A stretch of DNA of 64,000 nucleotides. Origin: Paramecium tetraurelia. Lineage: Eukaryota. The notes under the pieces are model-generated. The model saw only the letters and a program-made list of their open reading frames with translations. It was not told the origin of the DNA and searched no databases. Below, piece after piece: positions 34,825-38,615 of the stretch. The stretch lies in NCBI GenBank assembly GCA_000165425.1, contig CT868064.1, positions 1 through 64,000 on the forward strand. Reading direction: 5' to 3'. Numbering within the stretch: the stretch's first letter is position 1; every line of letters begins with the position of its first letter. The position numbers were made by a program, and so were the translations under genes.

Positions 34825-35220
34825 TCAAAATGATTTAATATGTCCAAGGTATTCTTCACCTGTAATTCTCACTTGAGATGTACAAATCTCTAGTTCATCG
34901 GCTATCATGGCTGCTAAAATATGAGGACAAAATTAGAATTCACGAGCATTGAATTTATCGCAATTGCAGATATAATTATTGGCCTTGTAGACTTTACTAA
35001 CCTTTTAGTTTTATTCTGTGATAATATAAATAGCTTTATTAGCTTGGACTGGAATTTTGGTGATGGGAATTTTGTTCTCAATCAAGTAAAATGCCTCCTC
35101 ATAGTGTTTATGGAGATCAAATAAATTTTTATGAGCCTCCAGAGATTTATCGTCTGTTTGCCCCTTGAATAACCCAACCACTCTTGAAACACATTATTAT
35201 GTTACTTATAATAATTCCAT
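34825..35220 (-). CDS. SWIM zinc-finger protein, SWS1/ZSWIM7-like, 131 aa
   Basis: Intronless 396-nt ORF containing YICNCDKFNAREFQFCPHILAA (CxC...CxH). Size and layout match SWS1/ZSWIM7. Confidence 0.7.
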
Positions 35221-35264
35221 TTATAATTAATATTTTATTAGAAATCAGAAATTCCTTATTAGAA

Positions 35265-37474
35265 ATGTAACCAGGTTTGAAGCAATTATTCTTAAGAACT
35301 AATGGCCTTATATCAATAAAGCCAAAAATCAGAATCACGGACAATTACACTCTCTCTCTTGTGTATTCACCTGGAGTGGGCCACATTTGCCAAGTCATTC
35401 AAAAGAATCCAGATCTATTATACGATCTTACCATTACAGGCAATTCTGTTGCACTTCTATCCGATGGATCAAGTATATGTTCTACCTTATCTTAGGATCT
35501 TAAATTAAAAAGCCTTCTTGGATGATTCCAAATTTAGAAGCCATCAGTGCATTATACAAAGCCTTTTATGACATCGATGCCTACCCTGTAATTTTGGATA
35601 AGGAAATCATGAATGGGGCAGATGACTACTTGCTGATCATAGATAATTTATCTACAACATATAAAGTATTATCCCTTCTATTTTTAGACAATTGTATTCG
35701 TCGATATCGAAGAAAAATTGACTCAAGAACTTTTGCATAAGTTGGAAAATGCCAAAATTGATTGTACAGTCGTCATTAGTAACACTCATTCCTTAGTTGA
35801 ATAATTAAAAGATGCTGCTCTTATCAAAAGTGCCCTGGATTCTCGTTCTATTTTAAAACCATCTCTAATTGAACAAATTAGACTAAAACTCAAAGGAATT
35901 GATTTCTCACAATTACCAAACTACTTAACAGCTACACTCAGTTCTGCCTATGCTGCTAGTTTGAATGAAATCCATAGAAATGGATTATTTCATCATACTG
36001 TAAAAAATACCACTCCATCCCAATTCATATCAAAATTAAATGATTTATATCTGTATGGTGAGATTGCATACTACAACAGATGGACACCCAAATAATTCTT
36101 ATAAAATAATGACATTAATTAGAATTCACTGGAATTACATAAAAGATATAATGGTGTCATCACCATTGCTTTGAAATTTAATCCAAGATCTCTAGAAGAC
36201 TTATACAGAATCTATGAGTTATCTTATAGGAATAATGATATCTTAGAGATTCAAAAATTATTCGAAGCTGATCCCAAGAAAATCCGTGAAGTCACACTAA
36301 AAAAGAATTATGCTGCAATAGTCACAAATGGAACTGCCATTCTTGGACTTGGTAATATTGGACCAGCTGCTGGATCCCCAGTGATGGAAGGCAAATCTGT
36401 TTTATTCAATGCTCTAGGTGGAATTGATTTGATGCCCATCTGTTTCAAGGAAAGAGACCCTCATAAATTAGTGTAACTTATAAGATAGTATACATATCCA
36501 CAATTATAATTTAGCATTGCACCAATCTTTTCAGCAATTAATCTAGAAGATCTTAGAGCTCCTGATTGTTTCCCTATTGAAGAAGAAGCCATCCAAAGCA
36601 TTCATATTCCTTTGATGCATGATGATCAGCATGGTACTGCTGTCGTTAGTTTGGCTGCACTCATCAATTACTTGAAATTAACAAAAAAAAATGTAAAAGA
36701 TCTTAAATTGGTCATCAATGGAGCAGGGTATTCTACCTAATTATTCGTAGTGCTGCAGGTGTTGCCATTTGTAAATTACTCCATGGTCATGGTGTAGAGG
36801 ACATCCTCATTTGCGATACTGAAGGAATCATCTATGAAGGAAGACCCAAGAATATGAATACATTTAAAAATGATCTTGCTAAATTTACGAATAAAAATAA
36901 AATAGCTGGCAAACTAGAAGATGCTGTCAAAGGCAGAGATTTGTTTGTCGGAGTCTCCAGTGCAGTATATTATATTATTTATGGTTATCATAGGGAGCAT
37001 TAACATAAGACATGGTACGTAATATGAATAAGGATCCATTTATTCTTGCATTAGCAAATCCACTTCCAGAGATAATGCCAGATGATGCAATTCAAGCAGG
37101 TGCCTTCATTGTAGCTACAGGAAGATCAGATTTTAACAATTAAGTGAACAACTCCTTGGCATTCCCAGGAATATTTAGAGGAGCTATTGATACCAAAGCC
37201 AAAGAAATCAATTTACAAATGAAGGTATCTTATACCATTTAATATGAAAAAGATTGCTGCAGCATATGCTATAGCAAATAGTATCAAAGAGAGTGACCTA
37301 TCACCTACCAAAATATTGCCAGGAGCATTGACAGCTGAGATCCCAGCAAATGTTGCTAGAGCAGTTGCAATTGCAGCTATGGAAAGTGGTGTTGCTCAAG
37401 TCAAAGTAGATCCAGAGGAGGTTTTCGATCATACAAGAAAATTGATAATGGAAGGAAGCATACCAACATTATGA
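35265..37474 (+). CDS. NAD(P)-dependent malic enzyme, prokaryotic small-subunit type, with a degenerate duplicated N-terminal half (about 690 aa)
   Basis: The C-half has [67 protein letters not shown]. The N-half has [10 protein letters not shown] and [10 protein letters not shown]. Six tiny introns. Confidence 0.92.
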
Positions 37475-37526
37475 TGATTGTTATAAATAAATGTAATGAA
37501 AAATTTGTAAAATAAATATATATATA

Positions 37527-38615
<1,089 letters not shown>

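Follow-up and report, generated by a model that had tools for sequence, protein, structure and literature searches.

How can a malic enzyme function when the tyrosine and the lysine of its active site lie in different halves of a duplicated polypeptide? This question is raised by a gene at 35265..37474 (+) of the window, i.e. the whole 64,000-nucleotide stretch of Paramecium tetraurelia contig CT868064.1 analyzed here. The gene encodes a 685-residue protein, which we confirm to be composed of a degenerate malic-enzyme copy without a Rossmann domain (copy 1), followed by a complete small-type malic enzyme (copy 2). The only intact YxPGV motif resides in copy 1, 328 residues upstream of Lys362 in the MEGK motif of copy 2; the usual spacing in small-type enzymes is about 52 residues, within the same unit. 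We consider it likely that the protein is a single-chain pseudo-dimer of the small, prokaryotic-type malic enzyme with one composite active site, to which copy 1 contributes Tyr34 and copy 2 the catalytic body.

This proposal builds on the architecture of small malic enzymes, which, according to passages in three reports (PMC11944484, PMC7902834 and bioRxiv 10.1101/2020.07.07.192161), are domain-swapped dimers with the tyrosine supplied in trans and each active site built from two protomers. In the Entamoeba enzyme (EhME), as described in sections of PMC11944484, a 48-residue segment crosses to the partner and positions the hydroxyl group of Tyr65' (in a YTPGV motif) 2.8 Å from Lys120 NZ, giving rise to what is termed a "composite active site". 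There, the catalytic triad is completed by Asp193 (the first Asp of HDDQ), the metal ion is bound by Glu168, Asp169 and Asp194, and Glu118, Lys125 and Asp131 are listed in Table 2 as inter-monomer contacts to the partner's arm. Similarly, a passage on Bdellovibrio MaeB states that the "crossover region donates Y52 to the opposing active site" (PMC7902834), and the preprint on the Mycobacterium tuberculosis enzyme states in one passage that dimer assembly is needed in small-subunit but not in large enzymes (10.1101/2020.07.07.192161).

In the Paramecium protein, two such copies are fused head to tail, and one of the two possible sites would survive. The surviving site would combine the copy-1 Tyr34 segment with Lys362, the Asp and metal ligands of NLED/HDDQ and the NAD(P)-binding Rossmann domain of copy 2, whereas the site made from the copy-2 segment and the copy-1 body would be dead, since that body retains neither the Lys nor the acidic ligands nor any of the Rossmann domain. 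Most likely, the copy-1 body would serve as a scaffold that clamps arm and segment via E84, K91 and D97. The expected reaction would be the NAD(P)-dependent oxidative decarboxylation of malate. As the tyrosine of small-type enzymes acts in trans, reciprocal losses in the two copies are what would be expected if a single composite site survives.

Copy 1 starts with an N-terminal arm and the swapped Tyr segment (residues 1–69; 35265..35471, +), recognized by a match to PDB entry 2a9f, the Streptococcus pyogenes malic enzyme: residues 13–69 match residues 19–75 of that protein as a separate stretch (independent E-value, i-E, 1e-6). Tyr34 is encoded by the TAT at 35364–35366 and forms part of YSPGV. 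In the degenerate body that follows (residues 71–160; 35498..35767, +, with the intron 35666–35687 inside), LEAI replaces MEGK, and Ile86 (35543–35545) occupies the position of the catalytic Lys. The body retains E84, K91 and D97, which correspond to EhME Glu118, Lys125 and Asp131 on either side of this Ile. Residues 8–160 align with positions 17–169 of a profile of second copies (i-E 3e-17), and a profile-profile comparison of the first-copy alignment with a malic-enzyme profile gave a probability of 99.6% (E 4e-25), with one large gap at template positions ~160–318, which constitute the Rossmann domain. After the excised domain come a helical, C-terminal-like tail and the linker to copy 2 (about residues 161–265; 35768..36104, +). 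On its own, the tail showed a moderate match to template positions 310–429, the C-terminal helical region (55% probability, E 1e-4), and in relatives it yielded weak hidden Markov model (HMM) matches.

Copy 2 opens with an arm and a former Tyr segment (about residues 266–338; 36105..36323, +) that has lost PGV but still carries Tyr302 (36213–36215) in the catalytic-Tyr column, where HMMER pairs DLYRIY with DLSLVY. The catalytic body (36324..37474, +, with introns 3–6 inside) contains MEGK (36384–36395, with Lys362 at 36393–36395), NLED (36540–36551), HDDQHGT (36618–36638) and, in this copy only, GAGAAG (36720–36727 plus 36751–36760, interrupted by intron 4), all on the plus strand, and ends with the C-terminal helical domain. 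Residues 265–660 match residues 22–411 of the Candidatus Phytoplasma malic enzyme 5cee (E 3e-110). P0001, an annotated 685-residue protein of Paramecium primaurelia with 95% identity to the window protein, scored 79.8 bits with PF00390 (gathering threshold 23.1; exon 3 of the window gene, 56.3 bits) and 88.3 bits with PF03949 (threshold 23.5), and the canonical N-domain profile matches it twice, at residues 11–147 (i-E 5e-23) and 266–433 (i-E 2e-52). Models of other malic enzyme types stayed below their cut-offs, i.e. NF009501 for MaeB hybrids (351 bits vs. 1178; the Pfam scan revealed no PTA domain) and NF010052 for large-subunit enzymes (109.2 bits vs. 326).

An earlier note on this DNA, made from the letters alone, had described two tandem small-type copies, and profiles and PDB sequences indeed match each of them; its positions for Tyr34 (35364) and MEGK (36384–36395) are exact. 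Its picture of the losses is partly right. The MEGK Lys and the Rossmann domain are gone from copy 1 as it said, but instead of a clean jump to the C-terminal region, degenerate remnants (VDIEE and ISNTH) persist at the NLED and HDDQ positions; likewise, the decay of YxPGV in copy 2 holds for PGV but not for the Tyr column, which is still occupied by Tyr302.

The same division of motifs extends across a family of fused proteins. Exon 3 was searched against longer proteins, and the best 120 matches were evaluated; in 120/120, a single Y[ST]PG lies close to the N terminus (copy 1) and a single HDD[QI] in copy 2. Paramecium is the only eukaryote named among these 120, which is not evidence of absence elsewhere. 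The fused proteins fall into three length classes: long (~830–870 residues, around 840), short (~660–730, around 700) and mini (479–535, around 490). Long forms consist of two complete malic-enzyme units and are bacterial, with source names from NC10, Desulfobacteraceae and Desulfobaccales, Dormibacteraeota, Cyanobacteria and Vampirovibrionales, and Thermomicrobiales, Chloroflexia, Anaerolineae and Chloroheliales; counting all fused forms, at least ten named bacterial groups are represented. Short forms come from ciliates and bacteria and resemble the Paramecium protein. One short-form cluster includes a protein from a Planctomycetota metagenome-assembled genome, with YTPGV and LEGE in copy 1 and Ala at the Tyr column of copy 2. 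An exhaustive profile search returned 14,898 malic-enzyme relatives in total, of which the best 150 were examined; of the 149 newly added among these, 21 are fused as judged by motif spacing (5 long, 11 short and 5 mini). The N-terminal 265 residues alone retrieved only the three Paramecium clusters in a word-indexed search, which reflects its sensitivity limit rather than absence of further relatives; a scan of genome contigs with the N-terminal part of P0095 gave no match, and searches of the ESM Atlas returned generic malic enzyme clusters only.

For column counts, we used 122 proteins minus P0044, P0075 and P0113 (fragments or of odd length), reduced to less than 90% identity, leaving 52 of 62 long and 23 of 57 short forms. 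In copy 1, the catalytic Tyr is present in 52/52 long and 23/23 short forms; in copy 2, the column holds Tyr in 44, His in 6 and Ala in 2 long forms, and Phe in 13, Leu in 5, Tyr in 3 and Ile in 2 short forms. T/S-P-G-V after the Tyr is intact in copy 1 only. Conversely, copy 2 retains the MEGK Lys, the Glu and Asp of NLED and the first Asp of HDDQ (EhME Asp193) in every long (52/52) and every short form (23/23). The corresponding numbers for copy 1 are 47/52 and 0/23 for the Lys, 39/52 and 0/23 for the Glu and 32/52 and 3/23 for the Asp of NLED, while the first Asp of HDDQ is present in 0/52 long forms and falls into a gap in the short ones. Thus, every member has one broken site, the pairing of the copy-2 segment with the copy-1 body, and one complete site, in which the copy-1 segment would meet the copy-2 body.

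As a separate observation, the first copies of long forms (e.g. P0012 and P0026) maintain the GxGxxG motif (Gly in 52/52, 51/52 and 52/52) and mostly the Lys (47/52), with the catalytic Asp gone in 52/52. Judging from these residues, copy 1 of long forms may bind a nucleotide, perhaps as a regulatory site.

The mini forms take the division furthest. Copy 2 lacks the whole Tyr segment in 4/5 of them, as it does in a copy from a Candidatus Gastranaerophilales genome (L049:3968-5461); their sole Tyr motif is thus that of copy 1. P0157, P0162, P0163 and P0140 (~480–520 residues) consist of an arm with YTPGV, what is left of the copy-1 body (DAYP and EPSF stretches), a second arm, and then a full malic enzyme without a Tyr segment of its own. 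In P0157, positions 22–71 of the canonical N-domain profile map to residues 7–56 and positions 65–166 to residues 181–282, so that the two pieces together amount to exactly one canonical N domain. A search seeded with P0163 was flooded by canonical enzymes via one universal peptide, with L049 and L059 as the informative hits.

These counts bear on a different explanation, in which copy 2 is self-sufficient through its own Tyr302, perhaps by pairing with a second chain, and copy 1 is a regulatory or stabilizing appendage. Tyr302 does align with the catalytic column and is kept in 3/3 Paramecium clusters, the only ones among the 23 short forms with Tyr at this position, and most long forms (44/52) have Tyr there as well. 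However, xPGV is gone from copy 2, the column holds Phe, Leu or Ile in 20/23 short forms and Ala in the Planctomycetota protein, and the whole segment is deleted in 4/5 mini forms. Self-sufficiency of copy 2 would moreover leave unexplained an invariant copy-1 YxPGV motif next to a destroyed copy-1 site, and we regard it as improbable.

Sequence constraint along the protein follows the proposed composite site. Mean pairwise identity is 56% in the copy-1 arm and Tyr segment, with 12/57 columns invariant (including Y34, P36, G37 and V38), drops to 34% (6/91) in the copy-1 body and 25% (2/102) in the copy-1 tail, amounts to 39% (5/67) in the copy-2 arm and former Tyr segment, and reaches 62% (96/322) in the copy-2 core, where all catalytic and cofactor motifs are invariant. 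The ranking of the regions is identical within Paramecium. There, the window protein shares 77% and 72% identity overall with the 687-residue proteins of the paralog-level clusters P0002 and P0003, and 83% and 74% in the copy-1 arm and Tyr segment, near the level of the catalytic core.

Beyond the motifs themselves, E84, K91 and D97 of copy 1 are invariant or nearly so in the 23 short forms, and N272, H277 and G282 in the copy-2 arm are invariant. Retention of these clamp and arm residues fits an internal pseudo-dimer interface, and the short linkers of long-form fusions would likewise favor internal pairing. Both considerations speak against the idea that the composite site forms between chains, with the copy-1 Tyr segment inserting into copy 2 of another polypeptide, so that fused chains associate as dimers or larger oligomers. 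Ancestrally, this fold swaps domains between chains, and sequence cannot separate donation within a chain from donation between chains; nevertheless, we deem the inter-chain arrangement unlikely. On the preferred reading, Tyr34 would reach Lys362 within one chain in the active enzyme, and the threaded topology of the entangled dimer may be retained in the single chain.

Splicing of the open frames under translation table 6 yields seven exons and six introns of 22–29 nt, with the ATG at 35265 and the stop codon TGA ending at 37474. Under table 11, the region splits into short open reading frames; under the ciliate code, long open frames emerge with short GTA...TAG introns between them. The coding region of 685 codons contains nine in-frame TAA/TAG (Gln) triplets, and the GC fraction of the AT-rich window is 0.23–0.34. 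The introns, all on the plus strand, are located at 35473–35495 (intron 1), 35666–35687 (intron 2), 36488–36514 (intron 3), 36728–36750 (intron 4, splitting the GAGAAG codons), 36965–36993 (intron 5) and 37225–37252 (intron 6). For intron 3, this 27-nt form rather than a 42-nt alternative is used, as read ends at 36487 and 36515 continue into the adjoining exon; it also restores a conserved LVQLIRY stretch.

Expression was assessed with raw reads of oligo-dT RNA-seq deposited under the same species label (runs X20, 2065 reads, and X21, 345 reads). The reads are 58 nt long and show cover, not single molecules. They cover 35272–37507 without a gap on the strand of the gene, while both flanking genes are read from the opposite strand, and loose read ends recover the junctions of the exons around introns 2, 3 (27-nt form), 4, 5 and 6. 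The boundary between copy 1 and copy 2 lies inside exon 3, where X20 depth is 21–24. The halves therefore do not appear to be transcribed separately, and we infer that one transcript molecule carries both. The RNA contig runs X5 and X10 yielded almost nothing on the gene.

Some reads deviate from the genomic sequence. Minority variants were seen at 36542 (T>C; 4/49 reads in X20, 7/18 in X21) and 36560 (T>A; 6/58 and 12/26), and in five X21 reads, the match stops at 36589 and is followed by 21 nt of unrelated sequence. Paralog cross-mapping or strain differences may account for these variants and breaks.

Transcription and splicing also bear on whether the gene encodes a catalytically dead pseudoenzyme or is decaying. 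No fused member comes with an assay, which leaves room for this notion, but the copy-2 motifs are invariant along with 96/322 core columns, the gene is transcribed and spliced, and P. primaurelia retains two paralog-level clusters, making a dead or decaying gene very unlikely.

Four points weigh against a composite site within one chain. The proximity of Tyr34 and Lys362 and the threading of one chain are deduced from sequence alone; the catalytic column of copy 2 is still occupied by Tyr in all three Paramecium clusters and most long forms, as described above; the 58-nt reads give cover only, and the 5' end of the transcript is mapped roughly, to shortly upstream of 35272; and, as far as we found, the fused family has no assayed or solved member (two malic-enzyme copies were seen in 0/36 matched PDB sequences). 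On the other side stand the copy-1 Tyr motif, invariant in relatives (52/52 long and 23/23 short forms), a copy-2 column with Phe, Leu or Ile in 20/23 short forms, an exon that spans both halves and continuous RNA. Taken together, these observations favor the single composite site per chain that the earlier note had suggested.

The relatives of about 710 residues could at first sight be bacterial, but this was ruled out by eukaryotic neighbor genes and telomere repeats on their contigs. These contigs carry SNARE, Rab, syntaxin and WD40/Utp12 genes, have a GC fraction near 0.2 and use TAA as a stop codon, and several end in (CCCCAAT)n. Two of them, L005 (2664 bp) and L008 (2602 bp), bear (CCCCAAT)n/(GGGGATT)n caps at either end and hold a short-form fused malic enzyme gene as their sole gene, intron-less and in the standard code (731 residues in L005); they are complete single-gene linear chromosomes. 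The same telomere repeat occurs in rumen ciliate genomes (10.1101/2022.01.05.474053), and malic enzyme is among the candidates for transfer from bacteria to rumen ciliates in an expressed sequence tag study (PMC1413528). Given the ciliate-type contigs and their telomere repeat, the short form is common to at least two distant ciliate groups. Three of the ciliate-type short forms (P0068, P0105 and P0108) bear N-terminal extensions of ~40–60 residues, rich in Lys, Asn, Ser and His, before the arm, which the Paramecium protein lacks; these could be organelle-targeting sequences.

Where did the fusion arise? The earlier note had taken it for an independent ciliate event, a replay of a duplication and fusion from which large-subunit malic enzymes would have originated. 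Quick trees and a topology test contradict an independent origin. In the N-domain tree under LG+G4, first copies make up 60/140 rows beyond a starred branch (96), and under a mixture model 37/87 rows (starred, 99), set apart from second copies and canonical enzymes; first copies of short and mini forms are nested within this group (starred, 98). A clade of Paramecium copy 1 plus copy 2 is rejected by the approximately unbiased (AU) test (dlnL 61.5, p-AU 0.009), with the tested group defined after inspection of the tree. Trees of the catalytic body are weaker: fused second copies plus one canonical enzyme form a set of 59 rows (starred, 95), and under the mixture model the group of fused second copies receives only 80% in the SH-like approximate likelihood-ratio test (SH-aLRT), with the canonical P0159 and P0196 inside. 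The duplication thus predates Paramecium and took place within a family shared by bacteria and ciliates. It is mainly the trees of first copies that speak for a single fusion event, and in these trees long-branch attraction among degenerate sequences may play a part.

P0159 and P0196, single-copy malic enzymes of 397 and 406 residues with an intact Tyr motif and normal spacing, may represent the closest unfused lineage or a tree artifact.

The idea of an independent replay draws on the architecture being legible as a fusion and on mini forms showing that fusion can end with one self-contained site per chain. Set against the grouping of first copies, the AU test and the occurrence of fused forms in many bacterial groups, it appears extremely unlikely, and none of the papers we found proposes a duplication-and-fusion origin for large-subunit enzymes.

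Paramecium and the ~710-residue proteins form a robust clade in catalytic-body trees (29 rows, starred at 100; 17 rows, starred at 99 under the mixture model). The next nearest groups are short and mini forms; among these, a named bacterial source could be assigned only to L049, a mini-form relative (Gastranaerophilales). As a tentative scenario, to which we give somewhat less than even weight, long, short and mini forms would be stages of one path: an obligate swapped homodimer was fused, one of its sites was lost by reciprocal decay, and useless parts were deleted until mini forms kept only the Tyr arm of copy 1. The Paramecium protein would then be a living intermediate, and ciliates would have obtained it from bacteria.

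A full-text literature search turned up no account of tandem or fused malic enzymes, and a 2025 paper on prokaryotic malic enzyme types names, in the passages at hand, ME-PTA hybrids as the sole fusions (PMC12704298). The fused two-copy architecture is thus apparently unpublished; new here are its eukaryotic members, a copy 1 that has lost its Rossmann domain, and the mini forms, with which the series is complete. An active site shared by the two halves of an entangled, domain-swapped dimer is a textbook-type feature of small malic enzymes, and the fused family offers a readable series (two full copies, a truncated copy, a Tyr arm only) from an obligate dimer to a single-chain enzyme. It also places a bacterial-type fused enzyme in ciliates, namely Paramecium and those with (CCCCAAT)n telomeres. 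If the proposed site is correct, hundreds of database entries named "NADP-dependent malic enzyme" would possess one site per ~700–840 residues, not two, and fusing an entangled dimer should leave one polypeptide that is threaded or knotted, which would make it interesting for work on protein folding. Overall, the locus encodes a real enzyme variant, whose proposed mechanism the sequence comparisons support well.

Both neighbors of the gene are transcribed from the minus strand. Downstream, 37627–38258 (-) encodes a PP1-like Ser/Thr phosphatase (Metallophos, PF00149, E 4.8e-22) that ends ~40–130 nt from the malic enzyme stop codon. Upstream, 34825–35244 (-) shows opposite-strand transcription with a depth of 19 at 35100–35185; its open frame of 139 residues has no Pfam match at E <= 0.001.

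Compared with known systems, the Paramecium protein is closest in its catalytic half to small-subunit enzymes (5cee, 2a9f, Thermotoga maritima 1vl6/2hae and EhME 3nv9). Copy 2 shares with them PF00390 plus PF03949 and the Lys, Asp, metal-binding and GxGxxG motifs, and the Tyr would likewise be brought by the swapped segment of a second malic-enzyme unit. Unlike in these enzymes, the second unit is degenerate and covalently fused upstream, so that only one site is possible instead of two, in a chain of 685 rather than ~380–490 residues. The bacterial tandem proteins of ~840 residues, which databases name only "NADP-dependent malic enzyme" or "malic enzyme-like NAD(P)-binding protein", similarly have YTPGV in copy 1 only and a complete HDDQ in copy 2 only, and their first copies group with that of Paramecium; however, their copy 1 keeps the Rossmann domain, GxGxxG and, in 47/52, the Lys, all of which Paramecium has lost. 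MaeB hybrids (PDB 6zng and 8jzo) are also multi-domain proteins, in which the catalytic domain is of the small type and the Tyr is swapped, but their extra domain is C-terminal and unrelated (PTA), whereas here it is an N-terminal malic-enzyme copy.

Large-subunit enzymes (human ME2, pigeon malic enzyme and Escherichia coli SfcA), to which the Paramecium protein shows weak matches (E 1e-14 to 1e-18), have a complete site in one chain, as the fused and above all the mini forms would achieve. According to passages of PMC11944484, they do so with a longer domain A and with two inserted stretches, named the "tyrosine insertion" and the "lysine insertion", to which their independence from the dimer is ascribed, and not with a second copy. 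If the path outlined above is true, the fused enzymes would have completed an active site within one chain by a route other than that of the large-subunit enzymes.

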